Source: an uncultured virus (IMG/VR IMGVR_UViG_3300033806_000075)
Taxonomy: Duplodnaviria > Heunggongvirae > Uroviricota > Caudoviricetes
Virus record (IMG/VR): IMGVR_UViG_3300033806_000075
Direction: 5' to 3' (one strand)
DNA: 64,000 nt
Under the pieces are notes generated by a model. That model had not been told where the DNA came from. It was given only the letters and a program-made list of their open reading frames with translations, and made no database searches. Positions 1,301-58,936 of the stretch are shown one piece after another (the stretch's first letter is position 1; every line of letters begins with the position of its first letter). The position numbers and the translations under genes are program-made.

Positions 1301-1660
1301 GTGGCAAATCGGAACCCGCGACGAGAGAACCTTAAGCCCCAGAAGTGGCCCGCAGGAGTCTCTGGCAACCCCGATGGCTACTCCCGGCAACGGCGAGTCA
1401 CCGATGCGATCCACAAGCTGATCGAGGACCAGAACCTCGCTCCGACGATCGGCCTGGTCGTCATCGCCAAGGCGACCGGCGACCTGAAAGTCCTGGGGAA
1501 CCGCCAGCCTGACATCGACTGGGCGCGGCTCCTTCTGCTCGATCTACTCGGCGAGGGCGGGTCAATTCCGAACGACGCGTCCGACGACATTATCACGCTT
1601 CGATCACATCTTGACGGCGTCAAAGGAAAGCATCGTCGCAAGCCTCGAGGGGCTCGCTAG
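1301..1660 (+). CDS. Putative terminase small subunit (DUF5681-like)
   Basis: ENLKPQKWPAGVSGNPDG motif; lies directly upstream of the large subunit. Confidence 0.7.
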   Translation: MANRNPRRENLKPQKWPAGVSGNPDGYSRQRRVTDAIHKLIEDQNLAPTIGLVVIAKATGDLKVLGNRQPDIDWARLLLLDLLGEGGSIPNDASDDIITLRSHLDGVKGKHRRKPRGAR

Positions 1661-3122
1661 CTACTGGGGTGTGACCCTGGCGACCGAGCCGGTCTGCGCA
1701 GGGCATAGCGCGCCGGCGCTCATGGTCCAGCAGCTCGTGGTGGATCGCCTGCCCACGGTGCTTTGGCAGGGTCCCCGCGGCGGGGGCAAGAGCTTCAACG
1801 CTTCCTTCGGCACCTGGATCGACAGCCAGCAGTATGACGATCACGGCACCTGCATCCTGGGTGGCTCCCGCGCTCAGTCCGAGCAGATCTACAAGGCGCT
1901 CGATCGATTCGATGCTTGCCATCCGAGGCGAAGCCCGCTGGTGAGCTTCACCAAGCAGGAAGCCCGCTTCAAGACCGGCAGCACCGTTTCAGTTCTGGCT
2001 GCCTCCCCACGATCCGTCCGCGGCCCGCACGTGCCCTCGCTCAAGCTTGATGAAGTCGATGAGATGGACGAGGACATCCGGGAATCGGCCATGGGCATGG
2101 CCATGGGCATGCCCGGGACGCCGGCGTCCGTATGCATGACCTCCACATGGCATAAGGTCGGCGGCCCGATGGCAGCCCTGATGGAGCGGGCCAAGGAGGG
2201 AGCATTCCCAGTCCACACGTTCTGCATTTTTGAGGTTTTGGAGCGATGCCCCGATGAACGGTCCGGCCGCGGAATGGAGCGGTGTCCTGGCTGTCCTCTG
2301 CTGGATCATTGCCATGCTGACCGCGACGTCCATCCATCGGGCCTGCCGAAAGCCAAGCGAAGCCGCGGGCACTATCCGATCGACTCGCTCATCCAGAAGA
2401 TCAAGGGTTTATCAGCCCGTGTTTTCGCATCCGATTTCCTCTGCACGGCGCCGCGAGCAGCGGGATCGTGGTTCACGGCCTGGGACGATCGAAACGTTTC
2501 GCTCGCAGCGGAGATGGACCCGGCACTCCCCGTTCACGTAGCCGTCGACAGCGGCGTCTTTACAGGCGCGGTCTTCTTCCAGATTCGGCACCAACAGGGC
2601 AAGGCTGGCAGCCCGAGCGTGAACGTCTTCGATGAGTACCTGGCCGAAGGGCTCTCTGCCGAAGAGAACGCTAAGGCGATCCGCCAGCAGATTGAGAATC
2701 GATGCGCCTGGCAGCGACGGATCGTGTCCACGGACTCGGCCGGCGGCGCCCGCAATCCGCTTGGCCCAACTGTGATCGCGGAGTACGTGCGGGCCGGCCT
2801 AACGGGCGATGGTGGCATCCGGCACTGGCCGAGCTATCCCGGCAGTGTGACGGCGGGACTGGCCACGCTCGAGGCCTTGGTGCGATCGGCCGACGGCGGC
2901 GTGCACATCCAGATTCACCCCCGGTGTGTGCGGCTCAACGAGGCCATGCACAGCTACGCCCGGGCCAAGCGTGGCGGTCAGTGGCAGGATTACCCGCAGG
3001 ACCCGCAGCACCCGCACGAGGACTTGGTGGACGCACTCCGCGGCGGCGTCGCCGTCGAGCTACCCCGGGGTCGCGAACCCCAGCGCCAGCACAGGCACAT
3101 GGCGGCAGGACGGGTGTTTTGA
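1611..3122 (+). CDS. terL: Terminase large subunit
   Basis: Walker A GPRGGGKS, Walker B LKLDEVD, coupling motif STW, RNase H-like VAVDSG...DLVDALR. Start codon uncertain. Confidence 0.9.
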   Translation: MTASKESIVASLEGLASYWGVTLATEPVCAGHSAPALMVQQLVVDRLPTVLWQGPRGGGKSFNASFGTWIDSQQYDDHGTCILGGSRAQSEQIYKALDRFDACHPRRSPLVSFTKQEARFKTGSTVSVLAASPRSVRGPHVPSLKLDEVDEMDEDIRESAMGMAMGMPGTPASVCMTSTWHKVGGPMAALMERAKEGAFPVHTFCIFEVLERCPDERSGRGMERCPGCPLLDHCHADRDVHPSGLPKAKRSRGHYPIDSLIQKIKGLSARVFASDFLCTAPRAAGSWFTAWDDRNVSLAAEMDPALPVHVAVDSGVFTGAVFFQIRHQQGKAGSPSVNVFDEYLAEGLSAEENAKAIRQQIENRCAWQRRIVSTDSAGGARNPLGPTVIAEYVRAGLTGDGGIRHWPSYPGSVTAGLATLEALVRSADGGVHIQIHPRCVRLNEAMHSYARAKRGGQWQDYPQDPQHPHEDLVDALRGGVAVELPRGREPQRQHRHMAAGRVF

Positions 3123-3830: not shown

Positions 3831-5681
3831 GTGCCTGACACATCCCCAACGCAGCAAGTCTTGTGGCCGCGCATCGCAGGGATGCCGTCCACGCTGGACC
3901 TGGCGATCACGCTGCCCGACGGCACCAAGATCATGGAGCCGCACAAGGAGTGGCGGCGGAACGCTATCCGCTGGCGATGGCTCGTCGACTCGTGGGAGGC
4001 CGGCGAAGTCTACCGCCTGGCCGAGTACGGCAAAGACCGGCGCGGTTGGCCGATCCACAACCTGATTCGCCACAAGCGGGAATATCCCGACCCCTACGAG
4101 ACCGGGTACACGCCTTACGAGAGCCGCCGGCCTGGTACCGACCAGTACGCCGCCGCTGCCGACTCCGACGATTACCAGCTCCGCCTGGCCCGTACGCCGG
4201 TCCCCACCCACCTAGCGGACGCGATCGAAGAAATCCTGGGCAAGATTTACGAGCGCGAAGTCACGCGCACGACCACTAGCCCGCTGCTAGCCAACTGGTG
4301 GAAAAACGTGGACGGGCGCGGGACTGACATCGACCGCTGGATGCAGGACACGTTCGCGCCTCTACTCCTGAGTCTGGCGAACCTCGACGCGGCTTTCGAT
4401 CACCCTCAGCCGCCTGAGGGCGTACAAATCATCTCTCGCGATGACGAGCTGCGGTACAAGCTCGGTGCCTGCCTGGCTTCGATAGTGCTGCCGACAGAGG
4501 TCGTCTGGTGGGAGCTCGATGCGGCCGGCGACTACAGCCGGATCCTAGTGCGCGAGACGCGCTGCAAAATCGATAAGCGGGGCAGCCACGATGAGGAGGA
4601 CGTCTACCGGTACTGGGACGGCTCGCAGTGGATCTTGTACGAGGCCAAGGGCAAGGAGATCGACCGCCGCGACCACCGATTCGGCCGTGTGCCCATCGTG
4701 AGAGTGTTCGACCAGCGGCGTCCGCGCTCAGCAAACGTCGGCAAGCCTCGATTTGAATCGATCGCCGAGCGGCAGCGTGAGGTCTATAACCTCGACTCCG
4801 AGCGCATCCTCTCCAACACGCTCCAGGCGCACCCGATCACGCAGGGCCCGGAGGATTATGCGTCCGGCGACAAGCAGGTGCCGCTTGGCCCGGATTACAT
4901 GCTCCCGATGAAGAAAGTCGAGGGAATGGGCGGGCAGACCTTCTACCAAGAATGGAAGGTTCTCGATTTCCCGAAGGGCGCGGCAGAGGAACTCCGCACG
5001 TGCATGCACGATCAGGAAGAGGCAATCGACCGCACGGCGCATCTGACCAAACCAGCCGGAGCCACAGGTGCAACAGGTCGCGTTGTCGGTCAGAGCGGCA
5101 TCTCCAAGCGCCTTGACCATCAGACTGGCAATGCGTTTCTGGCAAAACTCTCCCGGGTGCTCAAAAACGCGGAACGGAAGATAGCCGAGTTTGCCCTATC
5201 GGTTTTGACGGAGGATCGTCTTACGCCGGCGCAGTTCGCCGCTGAGGTCAATGCCATCACGATTGGCTACCCGACACAGTTTGACCTCTTCGACGCCAGC
5301 GAACTCTCCAAGGCGATCACCGAGTTTCAGTCGATCGCTGCGTCGGCCGGGGCCATGCCGGAGATTGAGGGCGAGATGCTGGCCTCTCTCGTCCGCACGA
5401 TCCTACCTGGCCGCGATGATGACCAGTACACATTATATGACAAAGAGATTGAACGATACTTAGCCGCGCGGGCGCGCGATATTGCACAGTCCCGCGAAGG
5501 CAGCTTAGCCGCGCCCAGCGCAGGAGAAGGAAGTGGCCGAGGAAGCAGCGGTGGTCCCGCCTGGAGCGGACCAGCCCAACCCATCGTCGAGCCCAGCGAC
5601 ACAGCCGGTGACCTCGACGAACCCGCCAGCGACAACGCACCAGTCGAATCCGGCAAGTCCGCAGACGGCACCGCCGCCTAA
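3831..5681 (+). CDS. Portal protein
   Basis: Position after terL, size, WWKNVDGRGTDID and QSGISKRLD motifs typical of SPP1-like portals. Confidence 0.85.
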   Translation: MPDTSPTQQVLWPRIAGMPSTLDLAITLPDGTKIMEPHKEWRRNAIRWRWLVDSWEAGEVYRLAEYGKDRRGWPIHNLIRHKREYPDPYETGYTPYESRRPGTDQYAAAADSDDYQLRLARTPVPTHLADAIEEILGKIYEREVTRTTTSPLLANWWKNVDGRGTDIDRWMQDTFAPLLLSLANLDAAFDHPQPPEGVQIISRDDELRYKLGACLASIVLPTEVVWWELDAAGDYSRILVRETRCKIDKRGSHDEEDVYRYWDGSQWILYEAKGKEIDRRDHRFGRVPIVRVFDQRRPRSANVGKPRFESIAERQREVYNLDSERILSNTLQAHPITQGPEDYASGDKQVPLGPDYMLPMKKVEGMGGQTFYQEWKVLDFPKGAAEELRTCMHDQEEAIDRTAHLTKPAGATGATGRVVGQSGISKRLDHQTGNAFLAKLSRVLKNAERKIAEFALSVLTEDRLTPAQFAAEVNAITIGYPTQFDLFDASELSKAITEFQSIAASAGAMPEIEGEMLASLVRTILPGRDDDQYTLYDKEIERYLAARARDIAQSREGSLAAPSAGEGSGRGSSGGPAWSGPAQPIVEPSDTAGDLDEPASDNAPVESGKSADGTAA

Positions 5682-6344: not shown

Positions 6345-7487
6345 ATGGCCTACAACGTCGGCCTCACCGGCCCGTACCCATTTGACGCGGACATCAAGCC
6401 CAGCCTGTTCGCCGCGGCTGTGAATTTCTATCCCAACCGCACGCCGCTGGTCTCACGCCTGCCCAACTATCCCACCAATGCCAATGTCATCAAGGCAGTC
6501 GACGACAAGTACCGTGCGTCGAAAACGACCATCAATCAGGCCAATGGCATCACCAACAGCGATACGTCGGTAATCCTCACTGATGCCACCTTTCTTACGG
6601 TCGGCGACGTGCTCAATCTTGGGACCGAAGCCGTCCAAGTCACGGCGGTGGACGCGACCAACAACACAGTGACGATCACCCGTGGCTACGGTGGCTCAAC
6701 CGCCGCGGCCCATGCCAATAGCCTTGCTACTTACCTGATCGCCACGGCAGCAACCGGCGCGGATGTTGACCTCAGCGCGAATCAGCGACAGTTTGACACG
6801 ACATTGACTTATCCTCAGACGGTGCAGCACGCCTATCAGATCGGTGGCTCGCTCGAAGGCAAGTCGGGCAACGCTGCGATCCCGATGGGCATGTCGAGCT
6901 TCGTCTCCTATCAGGTTGCGAAGGCGACCATGGAGGTGCTAGACGACTTCGAGCGTTCAATCTACTACGGCGTGCCACAAGCGATCAGCTCCAACACAGC
7001 TCGCCCAATGATGTGCGGCATCGCCAATCGCCTTACCACAAACAAGACAACGTCTCCCACTAACGCGTCAGCCTACAAGCCAAGCGACCTCGAGCGCGAC
7101 CTCTTCCAGACGGCCTACGCCGGTGGCGGCCAGCCAGATCTTATGGTCTGCTCGACCGACTTCCGCCAGGGATTCACCGTCTGGGGCGTTAACCTGCTAC
7201 TCTTGCGGCCTGGCGACACGGCCTTCGGCATCGATATCGAAGTCTGGCAAAGCCCGGTCGTCAACGCCAAGATCATCTTCGCGCCGCTGCTTCGGTCCGG
7301 TACGGCCTTCTGCCTCACCAGCGAGGAGATCTACATGGCCTGGGCTCGTGAGGTGTTCGACAAGCCACGAGGCTCCCGCGGTGACGCGTTCGAAGGCGAT
7401 ATCATCGGCGAAGGGTCGGTGGTCCTGAATAACGAAGCGCACCATGCCTGGGTCGAGGGTGTGACGGGCTTCGCCAAGCAGTCCTAA
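6345..7487 (+). CDS. Major capsid protein (DUF5309/SU10-like) with an inserted beta-rich domain
   Basis: Follows the scaffold; TPLVSRL, YPQTVQHAYQIGGS, DFERSIYYG, R.MCGI and GDAFEGDIIGEGSV resemble this HK97-fold family. Confidence 0.82.
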   Translation: MAYNVGLTGPYPFDADIKPSLFAAAVNFYPNRTPLVSRLPNYPTNANVIKAVDDKYRASKTTINQANGITNSDTSVILTDATFLTVGDVLNLGTEAVQVTAVDATNNTVTITRGYGGSTAAAHANSLATYLIATAATGADVDLSANQRQFDTTLTYPQTVQHAYQIGGSLEGKSGNAAIPMGMSSFVSYQVAKATMEVLDDFERSIYYGVPQAISSNTARPMMCGIANRLTTNKTTSPTNASAYKPSDLERDLFQTAYAGGGQPDLMVCSTDFRQGFTVWGVNLLLLRPGDTAFGIDIEVWQSPVVNAKIIFAPLLRSGTAFCLTSEEIYMAWAREVFDKPRGSRGDAFEGDIIGEGSVVLNNEAHHAWVEGVTGFAKQS

Positions 7488-11251: not shown

Positions 11252-11910
11252 CCGACATCGACATCGACGCGATGGAGCAGCGGCATATCGCCCGCCTCGA
11301 GCCTTGGGTAAAGCGCGGTGTCGTTCTCGTCTCCGGAAAGCTCGCTGATGCTCGGGCTCATGCCGAGAAGGCCGTGACCGACACGCTTCGACAAACCCCC
11401 GACGGCCGGGCTAGCGTGGCGCGGATCCGTCAGAACCCGTCCTTCCAGGCAGCACTCACCCGGCTCGATGAACTGCATACAGCGCTGGCCGGCTCGTCCG
11501 TCACGTCGATCTCGGGGCTAGTGCACGATGTGGCCGAGCATGCGTACGTCGATTCGCGCGATCTTTGGTGGGAGCAAATCGATCCGGACTATCGGGCGCC
11601 GTCGAAGGAGCCGACAAACGAGCAAAAAGCCAACGCTCGTGGGCTGCTCTGGTACGGTCTACCGGTGCGACAAGGCTTCAAGACTCAGTTCCAGGCTGCC
11701 CACAACAACCTGTTGATTGCCCTGAGTGCCGCCGGCTCAATCCAGGCGACCAATCGCGATGGCTTCACCGCCCTGCGCACCTGGGAAGAGAAGACCAAGG
11801 CGTCGATCCTGTCCCGACTCGGTGCCGCCCTAGTCGATGCCAACGTGCGAGCCGACCGGGAGGCGATGAAGCACACGATTCACCCAAAGTGGCATGCGCT
11901 GACTGACTGA
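11248..11910 (+). CDS. Helical protein, possibly the N-terminal half of a split MuF/head morphogenesis protein
   Basis: Translationally coupled (TGATG) to the MuF-motif gene. Confidence 0.45.
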   Translation: MTDIDIDAMEQRHIARLEPWVKRGVVLVSGKLADARAHAEKAVTDTLRQTPDGRASVARIRQNPSFQAALTRLDELHTALAGSSVTSISGLVHDVAEHAYVDSRDLWWEQIDPDYRAPSKEPTNEQKANARGLLWYGLPVRQGFKTQFQAAHNNLLIALSAAGSIQATNRDGFTALRTWEEKTKASILSRLGAALVDANVRADREAMKHTIHPKWHALTD

Positions 11911-13385
11911 TGGCCACGATTATTTGGCCAGGCACTCCGGGTGAGAGCTTCACCAACGACACGGGCAAGATCCTCTACCAGTGGATCTGCACGTGGCACA
12001 ACACCTGCGGAGCCTGCGCGCAATATTATCTCGCCATTGCTGAGTGGTGGTCGCCCCTTCACCATAACTGCCAGTGTTACTCAGTCCCAATATATCCTAA
12101 TGCGATTAGCCGTCAATACGAGAACTGGCAGGATGTCGTCTCCGGCCTACCGGAAGACCAACAGAAAGAGCTGGTCGGCGCCTCGAATTGGAAGCTGATC
12201 CAGGAAGGCGTTGTCGACTGGAGTGATGTGGTCACGAGCAGCCGGGTGAGGACGCTTGAGGAGGTGGTCTCCCGCGAACAGCTCGCAATCGAAGATATGA
12301 TCAAAGCCGGGGTCACGCCGAGGATTGCCGAACGCGCCTGGGCCAATGTGAACACGCCCGAGCACCAGTTGAGTGCGCAGCGACGGGCCGAAATACTCAA
12401 AAAGATCCAGGAACTTGGCGTTGGGCCGAAGACGCTCGCTGAGCACTTCGGCCAGCAGATGGCCTCCAAGGTCGGCATCGCGACCGGGCCAAGCGGACCG
12501 CAAACGATCCAGCGAGGCCAAGGGACACAACACTGGACCAAGCGAGTCTTGAGTGCGATCGCCGGCAAAATCAAGGCCGGCGTGCAATCGGTCGTGAGTC
12601 TCTTCAAGAGCAAGATGTCGAAGGCAAAGGCACCTGCGACCGCAACAGAGGCGCCTGCACCGCAACCGCTTACCAAGGTAAAGCCTGCTCCCGGCGAGAG
12701 AGCCGCACCGAAGCCGAAACCCATCGTCGTCAAGCCCTTGCCGAAGCAGGTCGCAGCGACGACCCCATCGTCTGCACCTTACACCGCATTTACGTCCGAA
12801 GCCGCGGTCGAGGCTTGGGGTGCACTGCATTACGGACCCGACTGGAAGGCAGCGCTGACACCGGCCCAGCTCACCGCGATTGAGCAATACACGGGTGGCG
12901 CGGCCATCAGACTGAACGATGCCTTGCGGAGCGGACCGAAGCCTACCGGCTTCTTGAAGACGATCGAAAAGAACCTTGACGCTCTGCTCGCGAGCAACCC
13001 AACGCCTGAGAATCTGACCGTTTACCGCGGCGTCAATCTCGATCGCATTCTCGCGAAGATAGGACTCTCCGGCCTGTCGGACCTGAAACCGGGGATGGAC
13101 TTGATCGACAAGGGCTACACCTCGACCAGCCCGTCCATCGATCGAGCGTGGGCTGGACCTAACCATCCCGACAACACACTGATCGAAATTCAAGTTCCGA
13201 GCGGCACACCGGGCGCCTACGTCGCCTCGGTTTCGACGGTCCTAAACGAGCATGAGTTCCTGCTTGGGCGACAAGTGGATACCTTCCGCATCGTCGAAGT
13301 CATACCATCGACTAACAAGCCGACGGTTCCGGATAAGATCGTGGTTGAGGCTCTCCAATCCGCCCAGCTCAAGGCGAGTAAGTAG
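11910..13385 (+). CDS. MuF-like head protein with C-terminal ADP-ribosyltransferase toxin domain
   Basis: N-terminal YQW...TCGAC...PLHHNCQC (MuF C..C/HxNCxC), Pro/Lys/Ala linker, then VYRG, YTSTS and EHEFLL (R-S-ExE, VIP2/Alt-like ART). Confidence 0.85.
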   Translation: MATIIWPGTPGESFTNDTGKILYQWICTWHNTCGACAQYYLAIAEWWSPLHHNCQCYSVPIYPNAISRQYENWQDVVSGLPEDQQKELVGASNWKLIQEGVVDWSDVVTSSRVRTLEEVVSREQLAIEDMIKAGVTPRIAERAWANVNTPEHQLSAQRRAEILKKIQELGVGPKTLAEHFGQQMASKVGIATGPSGPQTIQRGQGTQHWTKRVLSAIAGKIKAGVQSVVSLFKSKMSKAKAPATATEAPAPQPLTKVKPAPGERAAPKPKPIVVKPLPKQVAATTPSSAPYTAFTSEAAVEAWGALHYGPDWKAALTPAQLTAIEQYTGGAAIRLNDALRSGPKPTGFLKTIEKNLDALLASNPTPENLTVYRGVNLDRILAKIGLSGLSDLKPGMDLIDKGYTSTSPSIDRAWAGPNHPDNTLIEIQVPSGTPGAYVASVSTVLNEHEFLLGRQVDTFRIVEVIPSTNKPTVPDKIVVEALQSAQLKASK

Positions 13386-50451: not shown

Positions 50452-50482
50452 TTCCATGACCAGGGTCTGAGGAGACCCCATG

Positions 50483-50601
50483 CCCGCGCTCGCCTGAAAC
50501 AACGGCCGGCGCGGGGATCAGCCCCTCATTGTGGGGGGCTGGAAGGCGGGGAGTCCAGGAGCCGTAATCTCCTGGGCTCCCCTGAACACCCGAGTAAGGA
50601 G
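50483..50601 (+). promoter_or_regulatory. Three-hairpin structured leader, copy A
   Basis: 12/10/14-bp stems that covary with copy B. Confidence 0.7.
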
Positions 50602-50610
50602 TCTACCCGG

Positions 50611-50973
50611 ATGTCTATCATCCAGCGTACTTCGTCCGTACCGCGCCGCCAGAGAGTCGCACAATTTGACCTCAAACTCTGCGACTTGGAAGAGCGGGTA
50701 CCGCTCAGTACCGTAGTTAGCCCTCTGGTGGCAGCGCCGATTGCTGCGCCGCCATCGGTAGTCAGTCCTGATCCCCTTCCAACTCTTCCTAACAACGTAT
50801 TCGCTCACCAGGCGTTTCCGGATCTGCCGGATAATGTGTTCGCGCCAGATCCCGATGACCCGTTCGATCCCAATTGGAATGCGCCGTGGATGGAAACCCC
50901 TGAGCAGACGCAGCTTCCACCGATCTACCTGCCACCCCCTCTCGGACCGACAATCCCGAACGACACCCCCTGA
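50611..50973 (+). CDS. Small LExRxLS (Planc_extracel/LEPR-XLL-like) protein 1
   Basis: AAGGAG RBS; RRQR...LKLCDLEERVPLS, then a Pro/Asp-rich tail. Confidence 0.7.
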   Translation: MSIIQRTSSVPRRQRVAQFDLKLCDLEERVPLSTVVSPLVAAPIAAPPSVVSPDPLPTLPNNVFAHQAFPDLPDNVFAPDPDDPFDPNWNAPWMETPEQTQLPPIYLPPPLGPTIPNDTP

Positions 50974-50992
50974 TATGTCTTCTTGCTGCTTG

Positions 50993-51111
50993 TCCGCGAC
51001 AGCATGAAATGATGGCTGTCGCGGGAATCGCGATCCCACGGTGGGATCGCGGCAAGGCGGGGCTGACCGGGATCGTGACTCCCTGTCAGCCCCTGACACC
51101 CGAGTGAGGAG
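50993..51111 (+). promoter_or_regulatory. Three-hairpin structured leader, copy B
   Basis: Same geometry as copy A, with different stem sequence. Confidence 0.7.
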
Positions 51112-51120
51112 TTTACGCGG

Positions 51121-51507
51121 ATGCTAACCTTCCAGCGTACTAGGTCCGTACCCCGATACCAGAGGAGACGATTCCCTGATCTAACGCTTTGCGCCCTGGA
51201 GCAGCGGCTATCGCTCAGTGCGGCGACCGCCCAGCCAGCCGCAGTTATTCCACCAGTACCAACCTTAGTTCAGGTGCCGGTGGGGACCGGCCATTGTATC
51301 TGGCCGCTCTATAACACCGACCGTGCAAACTGGCCCGCTGGTGACGGCCACAATCTGCCGGGCTTTGAAACAGACCCGGGTGATCTTCCACCCTCGAATG
51401 AGCAGGGGCTGATCATGGGCGATCCGATGGACCCGGCGAACCCGGGCCCAACGCAGCCGCCGACAATGCCGAGTCCCATGGAGCCTAATGCAATGCTCCT
51501 TGGCTAA
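51121..51507 (+). CDS. Small LExRxLS protein 2
   Basis: GAGGAG RBS; QRRR...LTLCALEQRLSLS, then a Pro-rich tail. Confidence 0.7.
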   Translation: MLTFQRTRSVPRYQRRRFPDLTLCALEQRLSLSAATAQPAAVIPPVPTLVQVPVGTGHCIWPLYNTDRANWPAGDGHNLPGFETDPGDLPPSNEQGLIMGDPMDPANPGPTQPPTMPSPMEPNAMLLG

Positions 51508-51896
51508 GCCGTAAGACACCGGCCGGGCGGTCCGGTCGGGACCCGGCCCGGGCTCTTGCCATCTCACCCGGGCCGGGAAAGACAAGAGCCCCGAGCGTGC
51601 GGTCAACACGCTCGTGGATCTGGAAGGGCACATCCCCAACCGAAGAGGATGCAATGGCTACTGTACCTGAATCCGCCACCATCGTAAAAGAGCACGCAAT
51701 ATCCAGGCGAGTCGCCAGACTCCGCCCGCTCAAGCAGTTCTTTGGCGAGTACGGCGTCCCGCTCGCCGTGCTCGATCTAATCCTGCCGCCGGTTCCATGC
51801 CGACGTACGAGACTGCGCAGTCGCAGGCTTGCCCGGGGTCAGAGCGATCTGCCGAATCGCAGTTTTCGCTAGACCGCTGTCTAACGGAGGTGAATC

Positions 51897-53595: not shown

Positions 53596-53813
53596 TCCGC
53601 GTTGGAGACAAGGTCAAACTGCTGCACGGCGGTATCCCAGGGTCTGGCTCGCTCAATACGGAATTCCTCGACGCGGAGGGCTACACTGGCGAGTGTGTCC
53701 CCGTCATAGCCGTCGAAGGCAAGTACGCCATAGTGCAACTCCCGAGCGGCTACAAACTGGAAATCACTGAGCGAGATGTTCTCAAGACTGACAATGATCC
53801 ACTGCAACCATGA
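53592..53813 (+). CDS. Small SH3/KOW-like protein
   Basis: IRVGDKVKL...VIAVEGKYAIVQ. Confidence 0.55.
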   Translation: MIRVGDKVKLLHGGIPGSGSLNTEFLDAEGYTGECVPVIAVEGKYAIVQLPSGYKLEITERDVLKTDNDPLQP

Positions 53814-53970
53814 TCCCTGCAGCGACTGTCCCGGGCATCTCATTACCCTGACGCATCTGCAACGTCGCGGTGGCGTGTATCGTGTGTGGCGATGCGACCT
53901 CTGCGGCCGAACCAATGAGCCCCGAGTACTTCGCGAAGAGGCTCGGGCCAAACAGACAGGAGCAATCGAC

Positions 53971-54594
53971 ATGTCAGCAGTCGACGTATATCCAATCTTT
54001 ATCGACTTGGCCAGGCCGTTTCGAGCTGAGGAGGTCAAGAGCAGATCGCAAGCCGGACGGACCTTCAAATACATCACAGCTCGGACCGTGATGAACCGCC
54101 TCGATGATGGGGTCGGTCCTGGCAACTGGTGGGATGACTACGTCCCGCTGGAACATTCGGTCATCTGCCGGCTCACGATCCAGCTCCCTGACGGTCGTAC
54201 CGTCACCAAGTGTGACGCCGGGGGCTACGCTGGTCTTCCAGATGAAGGCGACGATGACAAAAGTGCGTTCTCGGACGCCTTCAAGCGAGCCGCGGTCAAG
54301 TTTGGCATCGGCCGCTACCTATACAACGACGGCGTGCCGAGCTGGGCAGAGCCAGAAGCAAAGGCCAATCCCAATCCTGCCGCGCCGGTGATCGAGGCCG
54401 AGACGCCCGGGCAAACGCTGGCCAAGTGGGCAGCGCGGAATCCCGATGCCCTAGATTTTCTAACCCGCGTTGGCAGTGACCTGGGCTTCCCGAAGGCTTT
54501 GAATACCTGGAACCAGGAACAGTGCGAGAAGGCCAGCAATGAGTGGCATAAAGTGAAGCGAGCGCGGCGAGCCCAGGAGGCCAGTGCAAACTGA
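53971..54594 (+). CDS. Rad52/Sak-family single-strand annealing protein
   Basis: YITARTVMNRLD..VGP.NW, VTKCDAG, KSAFSDAFKRAAVKFGIGRYLY. AGGAG RBS before 53971; the frame is also open upstream through a Zn-ribbon segment. Confidence 0.9.
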   Translation: MSAVDVYPIFIDLARPFRAEEVKSRSQAGRTFKYITARTVMNRLDDGVGPGNWWDDYVPLEHSVICRLTIQLPDGRTVTKCDAGGYAGLPDEGDDDKSAFSDAFKRAAVKFGIGRYLYNDGVPSWAEPEAKANPNPAAPVIEAETPGQTLAKWAARNPDALDFLTRVGSDLGFPKALNTWNQEQCEKASNEWHKVKRARRAQEASAN

Positions 54595-54873: not shown

Positions 54874-55021
54874 TTTTACCGGTCCCCGCTTGCTTTGATA
54901 CTTGCTCCGTGATAAGGTCCGAAGAGTTTGCCTTAATCCTGGCCTGCAAGGGTCAGGAAGACTTCGCCGGCCGCGAGACAGTCGCCATACCGCCTCGCGA
55001 CGGATAGACCCAGGTTTACAG

Positions 55022-57319
55022 ATGACACATGCTTGTCTTGCATCAGGCGCTGTTGCGCCTCGATCAGTACCGTTGCGCGTCCACTCTCCGTGGGAGCAAG
55101 ACGTCCAAGCCTTTGGATTGATCCCGGCTTCCATCTGGGCAGAGCCAAAAATCTCCTTTCGCGCGAAGATCGTGCTCGGGGGCCTTGCAATTGCCGCGGC
55201 TGGCTCCCGCGATGGAGTTCGTGCATCCAAGCAAGATCTGGTAGGGCTGACCGGCTGTGATCTTCGAACCGTCAGCCGGGGATTGGCTGACCTGGCCAAA
55301 GCCAAAATCATCGAAATCGTGGAGATCGGGAGGCAGTTCCGCTTCCTCTTTTCGCTCAAAGGAGGCACACGTCAGGCGCACACCGTGCACACAGCGTGCG
55401 CGCAGCGTGCGCCTGGCATGCGCGCATTGGGAGTTCCCCCCCAGACCCCCCTATATGGAAGTAGAGAAAGAGAGAAAGACGAAGACGACGAGACGCCTGC
55501 GGCTAAAACCGTCGTCGTCGTGTCTTCCGAGATCACTAACAAGATAAGAGCCATTTGGCCGGACGAGTGCCTCGTCGAACGACGCGCCCAAGAGCTTGCC
55601 AGCAAGGGAGACGCCGAGGCTCTCCTGGCGATCGAATATGCGCAGCTCAAGAAAGCCAAGGGGCTGGTGTATGCAATCAAGACACGCGATCGCTGGTGGC
55701 GAGACGGCTATGACCTTGCCGATATCCAGGCGGAAGTCCAGGCGGTTCGACCAAAAGCCACGTCCGTCAGTGCTACGGTTCTCCCGACTCCGACGTCACT
55801 GGAAGAGCGTCAAAACGAGGCCGCGAACTTATTGGAGAGCCTCGAGAAGGGCGGCTGGTCAATTCGGCTCATGGCGAATGGTGAGTGTCAGTGGGACAAA
55901 CTGCGCGATAATGCGACATGGGATGAGGACATTGCCGGAAAGTTGAAACGACTGTACCGCAGCGAAGTGCTAGAGATACTGAGAGAAAGGACTAGCCGAC
56001 GGGGTGAGATAGCCAACGGGAATGGTAGCAGACTTGGAGACTCAGCGCATGAAAAAACCGCTGGGGATGCCAGTCGCCACCTTACACCCCCAGCGGCCCC
56101 AGGTTATTTCCGTTCGCAGCCATCGGTCCGTCAGCCTGAGCATAAGTTAAACCCATGTTCAGGTCAAGGAGCGACAGTACAAACGGCAGATAACCAGCGC
56201 GCCCGGCAGGATTCGAACCTGCAACCCTCGGATTCGAAGTCCGCGGGTTCCGAGCCTCCCGCCGAGCCTGGCAGTAGTCTGCCACCAGTACAAGACACAC
56301 CTTCACGTCGGCAAAATACCGCGGAAAACGCAAACGATCCCCTACAGCCCCGTGAAGATGCCGAGAAAAACCCGCGGATATCCAATCCGCAGGTTCTCCC
56401 CGTAGCAGACTTTGGTGCACCTTCGCACCAAATCCCGCAATCCGAGGAGAGCAATTCCGATGCGTCCCGCGTCCTGGAAGAAGCTGCGCGCCGAGATCCT
56501 GAGCCTGTACGAGCCACCACAGAGAGCTCCGGCGACTTACCGGGAGATGCGACAGATTTTCGACGAATTCCCGGCACAAAAGGTCCGCGACCTGAGCCCA
56601 CCAAAGATCGCCGAGTGGATCAAGACGCATCCGGATCGCAGCCCGGCCAGGACAGCAAGCCTACTGCGATGCTTGGCCGTGATTGCCCGGTACGCGGTCC
56701 AGGCGAGGTACCTGGCGCGCGACCCATTCGAGTTCCGGGCCCCATCGAAGTGGGTACGGATGGACTCCCGACCGAGTACCCGCAGGATACTCCACCGGTC
56801 ACCGGAGCAGATCGGCCGACTACTGGACCTCCTGGATCGGGAGGCAGCGGAAGGAGGCTGGAAGGAGGGCCGGCTCCAGGCCATGGGGTACACATTTGCC
56901 TACACGGGGCTGCGGGCGAAGGAGGGATTAACGCTCGAGCGCAGCGACATCGATCTGGTAGCCCGTACGCTTACGATCCAGCCGAAGGAAGACTGGCGGC
57001 CCAAGACCCTCAGGTCGGCCCGCACTCTCCCGTTAGCCCTGCCGCTCCTCGATGTCCTGCGCCTCTGGATGCCCCGTACCGGATGCCAGTGGGTTTTCCC
57101 GGGTGTCCGGCTCTTGGGACCGTGGACGGGCGGGCCGCCGGGCGGAAAGGCGGTTCACGCCATGGAGGCGGCGGGGGAGCGGGCGGGCATCGGCCCGATA
57201 CCCTTCCTGGGGTTTCGCAAAACGTTCGGGACGGTGGCAGGGACTTGGGGTTTGGTTCCACAGGACGTGCAAACCATCTTTGGTCACACGCGCGTGGAGA
57301 CCCAGATGCACTACCGTGA
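55022..57319 (+). CDS. Putative replication initiator (N-terminal wHTH); frame reads through attP and overlaps the integrase
   Basis: KISFRAKIVL...SKQDLVGLTGCDLRTVSRGLADL.KAKII. Protein-like to ~56000; the true start and the reality of the C-terminal part are uncertain. Confidence 0.55.
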   Translation: MTHACLASGAVAPRSVPLRVHSPWEQDVQAFGLIPASIWAEPKISFRAKIVLGGLAIAAAGSRDGVRASKQDLVGLTGCDLRTVSRGLADLAKAKIIEIVEIGRQFRFLFSLKGGTRQAHTVHTACAQRAPGMRALGVPPQTPLYGSREREKDEDDETPAAKTVVVVSSEITNKIRAIWPDECLVERRAQELASKGDAEALLAIEYAQLKKAKGLVYAIKTRDRWWRDGYDLADIQAEVQAVRPKATSVSATVLPTPTSLEERQNEAANLLESLEKGGWSIRLMANGECQWDKLRDNATWDEDIAGKLKRLYRSEVLEILRERTSRRGEIANGNGSRLGDSAHEKTAGDASRHLTPPAAPGYFRSQPSVRQPEHKLNPCSGQGATVQTADNQRARQDSNLQPSDSKSAGSEPPAEPGSSLPPVQDTPSRRQNTAENANDPLQPREDAEKNPRISNPQVLPVADFGAPSHQIPQSEESNSDASRVLEEAARRDPEPVRATTESSGDLPGDATDFRRIPGTKGPRPEPTKDRRVDQDASGSQPGQDSKPTAMLGRDCPVRGPGEVPGARPIRVPGPIEVGTDGLPTEYPQDTPPVTGADRPTTGPPGSGGSGRRLEGGPAPGHGVHICLHGAAGEGGINARAQRHRSGSPYAYDPAEGRLAAQDPQVGPHSPVSPAAPRCPAPLDAPYRMPVGFPGCPALGTVDGRAAGRKGGSRHGGGGGAGGHRPDTLPGVSQNVRDGGRDLGFGSTGRANHLWSHARGDPDALP
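56052..56096 (-). terminator. Terminator downstream of the tRNA fragment (minus strand)
   Basis: CCGCTGGGG/CCCCAGCGG stem followed by T6 on the minus strand. Confidence 0.6.
56198..56249 (-). other. attP core: 3' half of tRNA-Arg(TCG)
   Basis: Minus strand reads CGGA-CTTCGAA-TCCG AGGGTT GCAGG-TTCGAAT-CCTGC CGGGCGC G; no 5' half; ~200 bp from the integrase. Confidence 0.85.
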
Positions 57320-57389
57320 GCCCGATACCGAGCAGCTCCGCCCTGCAATGGACCGAATCTATTTTCCCCGAGCGAGAGGAGCAGGTTGA
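56460..57389 (+). CDS. int: Tyrosine integrase (core-binding + catalytic domains, no obvious arm-binding domain)
   Basis: GAGGAG RBS; YTGLR..E, KT...R..PL, LGFRKTF (atypical HxxR), FGHT, TQMHY. Confidence 0.9.
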   Translation: MRPASWKKLRAEILSLYEPPQRAPATYREMRQIFDEFPAQKVRDLSPPKIAEWIKTHPDRSPARTASLLRCLAVIARYAVQARYLARDPFEFRAPSKWVRMDSRPSTRRILHRSPEQIGRLLDLLDREAAEGGWKEGRLQAMGYTFAYTGLRAKEGLTLERSDIDLVARTLTIQPKEDWRPKTLRSARTLPLALPLLDVLRLWMPRTGCQWVFPGVRLLGPWTGGPPGGKAVHAMEAAGERAGIGPIPFLGFRKTFGTVAGTWGLVPQDVQTIFGHTRVETQMHYREPDTEQLRPAMDRIYFPRARGAG

Positions 57390-57901
57390 TGGCGCGAGTA
57401 ATCAGACACCGAATTGACGGCAGAGTTCTCAAGACCATCGAAGGCGAAAGCCTCCGCGGGGCCAACCTCAGCACGGCCGACCTCAGCAGGGCCGACCTCC
57501 GCGAGGCCTACCTCAGCAGGGCCGACCTCCGCGAGGCCGACCTCAGCAGGGCCGACCTCAGCAGGGCCGACCTCCGCGAGGCCGACCTCAGCAGGGCCGA
57601 CCTCCGCGGGGCCTACCTCCGCAGGGCAAAGCTTGCTTGGTCATCCCATGATTTGATGGCACACCTGATCCAATTGGCAGCGGCTGATGATCTCGGTTTG
57701 CAGTCGTTCGCTGGACTTGTGTTAATTCGGCGGGACTTGTGCTGGCCTGACTTCTTGGCTCTGCACGATCATGCGGTGTTTAGCCCGCTCCTACAGCGAT
57801 CTCTTGAAATCCTTGCTGGTTACATAGTGGACGGTGATGGCGCACCGGATTGCGTGCGCCAAATCGCAGACTCCCGGCGTCAGACAACGGAGGCCACGTG
57901 A
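57389..57901 (+). CDS. Pentapeptide repeat protein
   Basis: 11 A(D/N/Y)Lxx repeats. Confidence 0.9.
   Translation: MARVIRHRIDGRVLKTIEGESLRGANLSTADLSRADLREAYLSRADLREADLSRADLSRADLREADLSRADLRGAYLRRAKLAWSSHDLMAHLIQLAAADDLGLQSFAGLVLIRRDLCWPDFLALHDHAVFSPLLQRSLEILAGYIVDGDGAPDCVRQIADSRRQTTEAT
57461..57625 (+). repeat. 15-bp tandem repeat, 11 units (coding)
   Basis: GCCGACCTCAGCAGG / GCCGACCTCCGCGAG variants. Confidence 0.9.
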
Positions 57902-58150: not shown

Positions 58151-58936
58151 ATGAGCCTCAACTCCAAGATCGAGTGGACTGACGCAACCTGGAACCCAGT
58201 TTGCGGCTGCACCAAAATCTCTCCGGGGTGCGCGCACTGTTACGCGGAAATCTTCGCCGAGCGGTTTAGGGATGTCCATGGGCACCCATATGAACAGGGG
58301 TTTGATCTCCGTCTTGTTCGCGAAAAGCTGGACGAGCCGCTGCGCTGGCGGAAACCGAGGATGGTCTTTGTCAATTCTATGAGTGACCTGTTCCACGAAG
58401 AGGTGCCCGATGCGTTTATCGAGGAAATTTGCCGCGTAATGCAGCAGGCGCGGTGGCATACCTTTCAGGTTCTCACCAAGCGATCGGAGCGAATGCGCGA
58501 CTTGCTTTGCTCGAAGCTACGCTTCGCCGCTTACGAGTCGCATATCTGGTTTGGGGTGAGTGTTGAAAATCGCAGGTATGGCCTGCCGCGAATCGAGCAC
58601 CTAAGGAGCACGCCGGCCGCTCTACGGATGCTCTCGCTCGAACCTCTTCTCGAAGATCTAGGTACGCTCGATCTCTCGGGAATGGGTTGGTTGGTCCTAG
58701 GCGGAGAAACTGGACCCAAGGCCCGAACGTTCAACGTCTCGTATGCGCACTCGATCGTCTCCCAATGTGCTCATGCCGGGGTTCCATGCTTCGTGAAACA
58801 GCTTGGAGCTCGGCCTGCTGCATACCGCAATGGGGCTTTCATTTCTTTCTGTTTTGCCGATCGGTCAGGCGCCGATCCCGGGGAGTGGCCCGAGGATCTC
58901 CGAGTGCGCCAATTCCCGGCCGCGGTGGAGGTCTGA
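58151..58936 (+). CDS. Phage Gp37/Gp68 (DUF5131) radical-SAM-like protein
   Basis: SKIEWTDATWNPVCGCTKISPGCAHCYA, FVNSMSDLFH, FQVLTKR, LSLEPLL, GGETG, FVKQLG. Confidence 0.92.
   Translation: MSLNSKIEWTDATWNPVCGCTKISPGCAHCYAEIFAERFRDVHGHPYEQGFDLRLVREKLDEPLRWRKPRMVFVNSMSDLFHEEVPDAFIEEICRVMQQARWHTFQVLTKRSERMRDLLCSKLRFAAYESHIWFGVSVENRRYGLPRIEHLRSTPAALRMLSLEPLLEDLGTLDLSGMGWLVLGGETGPKARTFNVSYAHSIVSQCAHAGVPCFVKQLGARPAAYRNGAFISFCFADRSGADPGEWPEDLRVRQFPAAVEV

Follow-up and report, generated by a model that had tools for sequence, protein, structure and literature searches.

Tandemly duplicated small genes of an uncultured peat tailed phage share an N-terminal leader that resembles a planctomycete surface-protein motif

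Why would a phage encode, one after the other, two small proteins that begin alike and end differently, and where would their common beginning take them? This question is raised by two open reading frames (ORFs), ORF A and ORF B, in a 64,000-nucleotide stretch of DNA (the window, by which we mean the whole stretch that was analyzed) from IMG/VR record IMGVR_UViG_3300033806_000075, an uncultured virus of the Caudoviricetes. An initial annotation made from the sequence had described them as mini-proteins carrying the export-type leader of planctomycete surface proteins in front of unrelated tails. Here, we show that ORF A and ORF B are tandemly duplicated, real, and probably early genes of an uncultured tailed phage of peat, and sequence comparison suggests that their leader is a divergent relative or a mimic of the planctomycete tag, of which it is not a demonstrable member. 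As to function, we tentatively favor one possible reading, that the N-terminal region addresses the peptides to the host route for motif-bearing surface proteins and that a short conserved motif in the tail acts at the envelope.

Both ORFs appear in the ORF list on the + strand at exactly the coordinates first annotated (Table 1), and their common N-terminus, then written as QRT.SVPR.QR....DL.LC.LE.R..LS, is recovered by BLASTP over residues 1-37 with 19/37 identities (E 2e-9). The profiles of the two small families, aligned by hhalign, match in columns 1-35 and nowhere beyond (probability 96%). By Smith-Waterman alignment, the two leaders score 77 versus 19.6 +/- 4.1 for shuffled sequences, with 0/2000 shuffles as high. 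The two tails score 38 versus 41.7 +/- 7.6, a value that 1385/2000 shuffles reach or exceed, leaving nothing beyond composition, and the ORF A tail scores -8.1 bits against a hidden Markov model (HMM) of eight B-type tails, which 683/1000 shuffles equal or surpass. The tails thus diverge as first described, since no similarity between them is detectable, but "low complexity" does not do justice to ORF B, whose tail holds an 18-residue conserved core. Searching the window in six frames, we find the pattern [CL]xLExR in this context in ORF A and ORF B alone (four matches in total, the other two unrelated). Over the 35 leader codons, the two ORFs have a synonymous divergence (dS) of 0.80 and a nonsynonymous divergence (dN) of 0.39, suggesting that the duplication is old and the constraint moderate.

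That both ORFs are genes is indicated first by their starts: a Shine-Dalgarno sequence (AAGGAG or GAGGAG) stands 8-9 nucleotides (nt) ahead of each ATG, and these sites and the start codons are conserved. Homologues exist for both. A word-indexed search finds P0002, P0003, and P0004 for ORF B (88, 55, and 47% identical) and P0005 for ORF A (93% identical over the full length), and a profile query against 1.84 billion representative proteins gives 7 matches at E<=0.001, adding P0006-P0009. Together, these make 8 metagenome homologues of 95-172 amino acids (aa) that start at an equivalent Met, with identities of 37-88% for those of ORF B. None is named. Their sources are ENA or Logan assemblies throughout, in which most lie on contigs 1-2 kb long, whereas the contig of P0007 measures 40.6 kb and that of P0008 9.2 kb. 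With 7 representative clusters among the 1.84 billion proteins, the family is rare, and it is unannotated, having no match in Pfam, NCBIfam, or PHROGs. Viral contigs gave no match with ORF B, the DUF932 gene of the window, or the conserved block upstream of the two ORFs as the query; the B-family alignment produced 170 pattern matches in metagenome contigs, 0 of them related; and tblastn with ORF B found no match in a phage collection. Two loci on genome contigs, L001 and L002, were rejected as relatives, both being out-of-frame chance matches.

Strain variation in the peat metagenome runs, for which we used the best-supported 40 of 82 differences, also favors coding. Synonymous changes make up 10 of 16 in ORF A (6 nonsynonymous) and 9 of 18 in ORF B (9 nonsynonymous), versus 25% expected by chance, and the two other + strand frames have 0-6 synonymous changes of 16-18. 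The opposite view would be that the ORFs are nonfunctional chance frames in GC-rich DNA and that the RNA elements in front of them, described below, are the sole real features. Three caveats lend themselves to it: the GC content at third codon positions (GC3) is 0.60 in ORF A and 0.63 in ORF B, below the 0.67-0.77 of neighboring genes; identity between the two leaders is flat across codon positions (0.63, 0.69, and 0.63); and the antisense frame over ORF A likewise has 10/19 changes synonymous. Against the conservation of the protein down to 37% identity in 8 independent metagenome sequences, an invariant 18-residue core, the conserved starts, and the low synonymous counts of the other + strand frames, we consider chance ORFs extremely improbable. 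In run X1, position 51417 is joined to 51542 in a single contig (depth, 20.8), with 124 nt skipped; a variant so joined would have lost ~30 codons from the end of ORF B, together with the stop.

An alignment of 10 sequences (ORF A, ORF B, and the 8 homologues) resolves the family into consecutive parts. The first is a basic N-part with 3-6 Lys or Arg, the positions of which are not conserved; between close strains of ORF B, 7/9 nonsynonymous changes fall within residues 2-18, and two Arg are lost among them. It is followed by the fixed motif LxLCxLExRxSLS, in which L21, C24, L26, E27, R29, S31, and S33 vary little or not at all, and by a Pro-rich, weakly hydrophobic stretch (best 12-residue hydropathy, 0.8-2.5) that terminates in (I/V)PVG(T/P)G in the B type. 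The B type then has the core NWPAGDGHNLPGFETDPG, which is invariant in the four closest sequences and recognizable in 8/8 B-type sequences and is thus better conserved than the leader, and the ends are Pro-rich. ORF A and P0005 have the same parts up to the hydrophobic stretch, after which their tail is of another kind and contains an LP[ND]NVFA repeat. The family is therefore one leader on two cargo types. A leader conserved among homologues had been anticipated by the initial annotation and is what we find, but the hypervariable tail expected with it is wrong for the B type, given its core, and just two cargo types were found. P0008 (172 aa) is extended by 50 residues at the N-terminus, has no Cys, and carries motifs of the GDPMD/SPMDP type after the leader and ahead of the core; ORF B and P0006 have such motifs at the C-terminal end, a difference in placement that suggests shuffling of short modules within the family.

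All members are acidic, with isoelectric points (pI) of 4.1-5.3, and contain 14-22% Pro (ORF A, pI 4.2 and 22% Pro; ORF B, pI 5.1). For ORF B, AlphaFold2 run with the 10-sequence alignment returns a mean predicted local distance difference test (pLDDT) score of 57.7, a predicted template modeling (pTM) score of 0.13, and zero secondary-structure elements, and the two proteins are predicted to be disordered. No 19-residue window in either protein exceeds a hydropathy of 1.42 (best value, 1.42 in ORF A and 1.14 in ORF B), arguing that neither has a classical signal or membrane helix. Features of a Sec or lipoprotein signal are lacking as well: D, E, and R interrupt residues 19-30, and the Cys has no hydrophobic segment before it. 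We also rejected a lipoprotein or o-spanin (no h-region ahead of the Cys and genes outside any lysis cassette), a twin-arginine translocation (Tat) signal (charged residues break the would-be h-region), and a lasso-peptide core (Thr at -2 not conserved). A profile search of the PDB gave a chance P450 match alone (E 0.57).

A leader followed by a short conserved core is the layout of modified or bacteriocin-like peptide precursors, in which the N-terminus would serve as a recognition leader and be cut near the conserved PVG(T/P)G, whose small residues could form a cleavage site. However, ORF A is without the PVGxG site, Cys/Ser/Thr-rich core patterns are absent, and none of the neighbors of ribosomally synthesized and posttranslationally modified peptides (RiPPs) or double-glycine leaders, i.e., a maturase, peptidase-ABC exporter, or immunity gene, is recognized among 48 window ORFs by Pfam or among subsets of them by NCBIfam and PHROGs (the window leaves out ~10 kb of the contig). 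A role as precursors is thus very improbable.

The similarity between the two copies begins not at the ATG but ~135 nt upstream of each, with a structured 5' leader RNA. RNAalifold pairs 38 positions in the two copies, 11 pairs having changes on both sides and 0 being broken, and a covariance model of the RNA finds these two copies only in the 64 kb (157 bits; next match, 18.7). It has no Rfam match. The RNA is more conserved than the coding leader, with a mean column identity of 83% in the RNA alignment versus 65% nucleotide identity. The hairpins are not followed by a T-run, and a simple terminator scan finds no site there. Two copies are good evidence for a structure of the leader RNA but none for a function. 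After ORF B, the intergenic region 51508-51653 also contains GC-rich hairpins, before a small ORF at 51654-51872 with GAGGA ahead of its ATG; the model of the leader RNA does not match it, and it folds with a z-score of just -1.6.

In phage lambda, too, an early protein that is small and disordered and has a basic N-terminus, N, is encoded just 3' of a conserved RNA hairpin, that of the nut site. ORF A and ORF B could be Arg-rich RNA-binding regulators of this style, with a basic N-terminus that binds the hairpins of its own leader and controls read-through or translation of the early operon. The three-hairpin RNA lies directly 5' of these two genes and nowhere else in the window, and the copies differ from each other in their hairpin stems as well as in their N-parts. 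However, lambda N-type proteins are basic, whereas this family is acidic and has no conserved Arg-rich motif: close strains differ by the loss of 2/6 Arg, and P0003, P0004, P0007, and P0009 have another layout. Moreover, the invariant part is LxLCxLExR and not the basic segment, and the simple scan recognizes no terminators downstream. Despite the hairpins, such a regulatory role seems distinctly improbable.

What, then, does the fixed motif resemble? PMC8567305 gives planctomycete N-terminal motifs as RRLxxExLExRxLLA (R. baltica) and LxLExLExRxxP (T. immobilis), the latter form in 52 Tuwongella genes, and describes an N-terminal "cell surface signal" specific to planctomycetes (PF07595 Planc_extracel; Studholme et al. 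2004, cited therein). The 20 detected Tuwongella motif proteins in table S9 of that paper have masses of 53-822 kDa and pI of 3.7-4.5, are all SignalP "OTHER," and are enriched in the sodium dodecyl sulfate (SDS) fraction. A LEPR-XLL domain is mentioned for a giant Vibrio protein (PMC10868602), and a locus of SecA-like, M50-protease, adaptor, and TolC genes is described in Kamneva et al. 2015 (PMC4452313); general library scans of the window proteins recognize none of these four kinds of genes.

Compared by eye with the published motifs, both ORFs agree at 5/7 fixed positions of the Tuwongella form and 5/10 of the R. baltica form, with L, L, E, and R identical and the Arg pair displaced 3-4 residues upstream, and the conserved positions of the family (21, 24, 26, 27, 29, 31, and 33) fall on fixed positions of the published motif with the same spacing. 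As control leaders, we used two giant-protein N-termini, P0010 and P0011, obtained by scanning six planctomycete plasmids with PF07595. A Singulisphaera giant protein reads ...RRLTLEHLEERTLLATLPQPLVPL where ORF B reads ...DLTLCALEQRLSLSAATAQPAAVIPP, and a Pro-rich, weakly hydrophobic stretch follows in both. By hhalign, the best local match of the family to the two controls is leader on leader, in LExR register (pairwise E 0.024 and 0.43). Among the first 45 residues of 1138 six-frame ORFs of at least 60 aa from the window and fetched loci, L..[EC].LE.R occurs in 3, namely, ORF A, ORF B, and a real leader. The likeness to the PF07595 signal thus comprises a position at the extreme N-terminus, an Arg-rich segment and then LxLxxLExR, a Pro-rich stretch, the absence of a classical signal peptide, and an acidic body, in which the family parallels the Tuwongella motif proteins. 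To LEPR-XLL (NF012209, "LEPR-8K"), found on giant proteins of several phyla, the likeness is that of a short N-terminal tag on acidic exported proteins.

Several results weigh against taking this leader for an export signal. The HMM search proposed with the initial annotation is negative: PF07595 (20 positions; gathering cutoff, 25.5 bits) and NF012209 (24 positions; cutoff, 17 bits) match 0/10 family members at E<=10. In the same run, the controls P0010 (13.4 bits, E 0.065) and P0011 (16.5 bits, E 0.0068) also stay under the PF07595 cutoff yet are visible; since the model sees two divergent real leaders and none of the ten phage leaders, not even below threshold, the latter are further from it. 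NF012209 misses both planctomycete controls, so its result says little either way, and its 1 match in 401 genomes of another phylum is probably spurious. The hhalign probabilities of the leader-on-leader matches are merely 2% and 0.1%, and the looser pattern L.L..LE.R occurs in 5/1138 ORFs, two of them random besides ORF A, ORF B, and 1 real leader. The motif itself departs from the published one by three family-specific replacements, Cys for Glu and Ser for both Leu and Ala: its first Glu is Cys in 9/10 sequences, and Leu-Leu-Ala is Ser-Leu-Ser. Queried with residues 1-40, 31 candidates include no long protein with the phage leader at E<=10. The 20 detected Tuwongella motif proteins are all at least 53 kDa, whereas the phage-encoded cargo here is not a repeat protein of such a size but a disordered peptide of 13 kDa (120-128 aa), so that the acidity and the lack of a hydrophobic helix are not accompanied by the large size of those carriers. 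Finally, the motif is merely "thought to represent" an export signal in the wording of PMC8567305. In the ESM Atlas, ORF B has a "putative LEPR-XLL" cluster as its third match at 0.81, which is inside the range reached by shuffled proteins, and residues 1-40 of ORF A give nothing useful. The first claim of a planctomycete-motif leader is thus upheld as a resemblance to the published motifs and not as a match to the models. Full-text matches for LEPR-XLL, Planc_extracel, and PF07595 include no phage proteins, and, within the reach of these full-text searches, no published work has mini-proteins with a phage-borne near-copy of the leader.

If the likeness is coincidental, the two proteins could be disordered cytoplasmic agents of host takeover, with a basic segment and a short amphipathic binding helix at the N-terminus and a tail motif that docks on a host enzyme or defense protein. 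The failure of both HMMs on 10/10 members, a background of ~2/1135 ORFs for the bare motif, full predicted disorder as is typical of small early phage inhibitors, and the placement among small early genes adjoining recombination genes would all be in keeping with this. However, at seven positions the conserved residues are spaced as in the published motif; one leader on two unrelated tails is the behavior of a targeting signal and unusual for a binding helix; and a real leader protein has its counterparts to the variable basic N-part, the acidic body, and the Pro-rich hydrophobic stretch. We regard takeover proteins of this kind as somewhat unlikely.

The replacements within the motif could also mean that the peptides are decoys, which competitively occupy the leader recognition or processing machinery of the host, so that export of giant surface proteins stops and receptors are removed or the surface is remodeled. 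Cys for Glu and Ser for Leu inside an otherwise matching motif would suit a binder rather than a normal substrate, as would a cargo that is tiny next to real substrates. For a decoy, however, a conserved tail would be superfluous, and in the B type no part is conserved better than the core; we hold this use of the leader to be improbable.

Each copy is a cassette of four parts: the three-hairpin RNA of ~135 nt, the Shine-Dalgarno sequence, the 35-residue N-terminal region, and a different tail that is acidic, Pro-rich, and predicted to be disordered. Under the reading that we prefer, in which the leader addresses its cargo to the host surface-protein route, the N-terminal region, a variable basic segment and then the fixed motif, would be a mimic or a diverged copy of the non-Sec leader for export that is present on acidic surface proteins of planctomycetes and some other phyla. 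Since the basic N-part varies between strains, seemingly its charge alone matters, as in the n-region of a signal. If the region is such a copy or mimic, the host machinery for that leader would handle the 13-kDa peptides and most likely carry them to the envelope or outside, where the conserved short tail motif would bind a host surface component. Such binding could mask a receptor or exclude a superinfecting phage, as small early envelope proteins of other phages do. Starting from what the sequences display (the conservation pattern, predicted disorder, RNA structure, acidity, and lack of a classical signal), we infer recognition, export, and a surface target. Llp of T5 and Cor of phi80 and N15 are likewise small early phage products for the host surface, which mask receptors or exclude superinfection; unlike the disordered proteins described here, they are folded and carry ordinary lipoprotein or Sec signals, and sequence similarity to ORF A and ORF B is not expected.

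The surroundings of the two genes are those of a tailed phage, with terminase, portal, SU10-type capsid, DUF932, and Erf/Rad52-like annealing proteins recognized by Pfam and PHROGs, which also find HNH endonucleases. ORF A and ORF B are genes 3 and 4 of a rightward string of small genes that runs from DUF932 to the annealing protein, a location that fits an early or host-takeover region. Relatives of the capsid protein, in Clostridium and Sporosarcina phages, are just 23-25% identical. In the structural module, a 491-aa ORF (11910-13385) has an ADP-ribosyltransferase exoenzyme domain at residues 301-466 (PF03496, E 4.8e-24) and may be an ejected host-modifying protein, and in the replication region, a pentapeptide-repeat protein of 171 aa (57386-57901; PF00805, E 1.5e-20) could act as a DNA mimic. 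ARAGORN calls a tRNA-Arg(TCG) at 56199-56268 on the - strand, within an 805-aa ORF on the + strand (54902-57319), so either the tRNA call or the extent of the ORF is wrong. A pseudopilin-like phage gene has only the prepilin N-terminus in common with a Singulisphaera DUF1559 protein and gives no plasmid match.

A planctomycete host, implied by the initial annotation, is not supported, and the presence of the stretch in peat metagenome runs is the sole habitat information; no RNA run is listed among these. ORF A contains a protospacer for a CRISPR spacer in peat run X4, which matches in two short contigs with 0 mismatches and has the same ~30-nt sequence on both sides. This type I-C-like repeat forms arrays of up to 52 repeats, adjoins a type I-C Cas1, and occurs in 11 metagenome loci of 59-71% GC, 0 of whose 179 spacers match the window; it is thus too widespread for naming a host. 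The orientation of the repeat is probably marked by its ATTGAAAC end. On that assumption, positions 50674-50676 form the protospacer-adjacent motif (PAM) side; the targeted strand has TTT there and would have TTC in a strain variant that co-occurs (50674 A>G; K22E, the state of P0005). TTC is given as the canonical I-C PAM in bioRxiv 10.1101/2022.06.15.496202 and PMC8406640. With TTT here versus TTC in the co-occurring variant, the window phage may be a PAM escape variant.

Table 1. Features of the window discussed in the text, with the two ORFs and their parts first
Feature	Coordinates	Strand	Remarks
ORF A	50611-50973	+	120 aa; common leader aa 1-35, then Pro/Asp-rich tail with short LP[ND]NVFA repeat
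ORF B	51121-51507	+	128 aa; leader, semihydrophobic Pro-rich stretch to PVGTG, conserved core, Pro/Met-rich end
Leader-coding part, ORF A	50611..50715	+	Basic N-part and LKLCDLEERVPLS
Leader-coding part, ORF B	51121..51225	+	Basic N-part and LTLCALEQRLSLS
5' leader RNA, ORF A	50478..50610	+	Three hairpins and a small hairpin, Shine-Dalgarno AAGGAG in loop, directly 5' of ATG; fold z-score -4.6
5' leader RNA, ORF B	50988..51120	+	Architecture of the ORF A copy, different stem sequences; fold z-score -6.0
B-type conserved core	51328..51381	+	18 residues N70-G87, NWPAGDGHNLPGFETDPG; invariant in P0001-P0004
Protospacer in ORF A	50639..50673	+	35 nt identical to spacer flanked by CRISPR repeats, peat run X4
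Terminase	1611-3122		
Portal	3831-5681		
SU10-type capsid protein	6345-7487		
DUF932 phage gene	48983..50041	+	PF06067, E 4.8e-54; phrog_1221; two genes upstream, same rightward string
Erf/Rad52-like single-strand annealing protein	53776..54594	+	PF04098, E 6.9e-12; phrog_1097; downstream
DUF5131	58151-58936		Pfam/PHROGs scan

A more far-reaching proposal, which we consider quite unlikely, is that the locus is a duplicable "address cassette," in which the leader RNA and a mimic of a non-Sec tag are fused to different short peptides and feed mini-substrates, or Cys-bearing dead-end decoys, into the export route of giant surface proteins, remodeling or blinding the host surface early. If true, it would be the first viral exploitation of this route and a natural probe for it. 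The planctomycete-type motif is among the few widespread putative export signals without known machinery or cleavage site, and a disordered phage carrier of a near-copy, at 13 kDa, would be far easier to handle than the natural carriers of 50-800 kDa and would open the route to direct tests. Should the likeness be a coincidence, the locus would still provide a rare family of small early phage proteins that is unannotated, together with a new structured 5' leader RNA.

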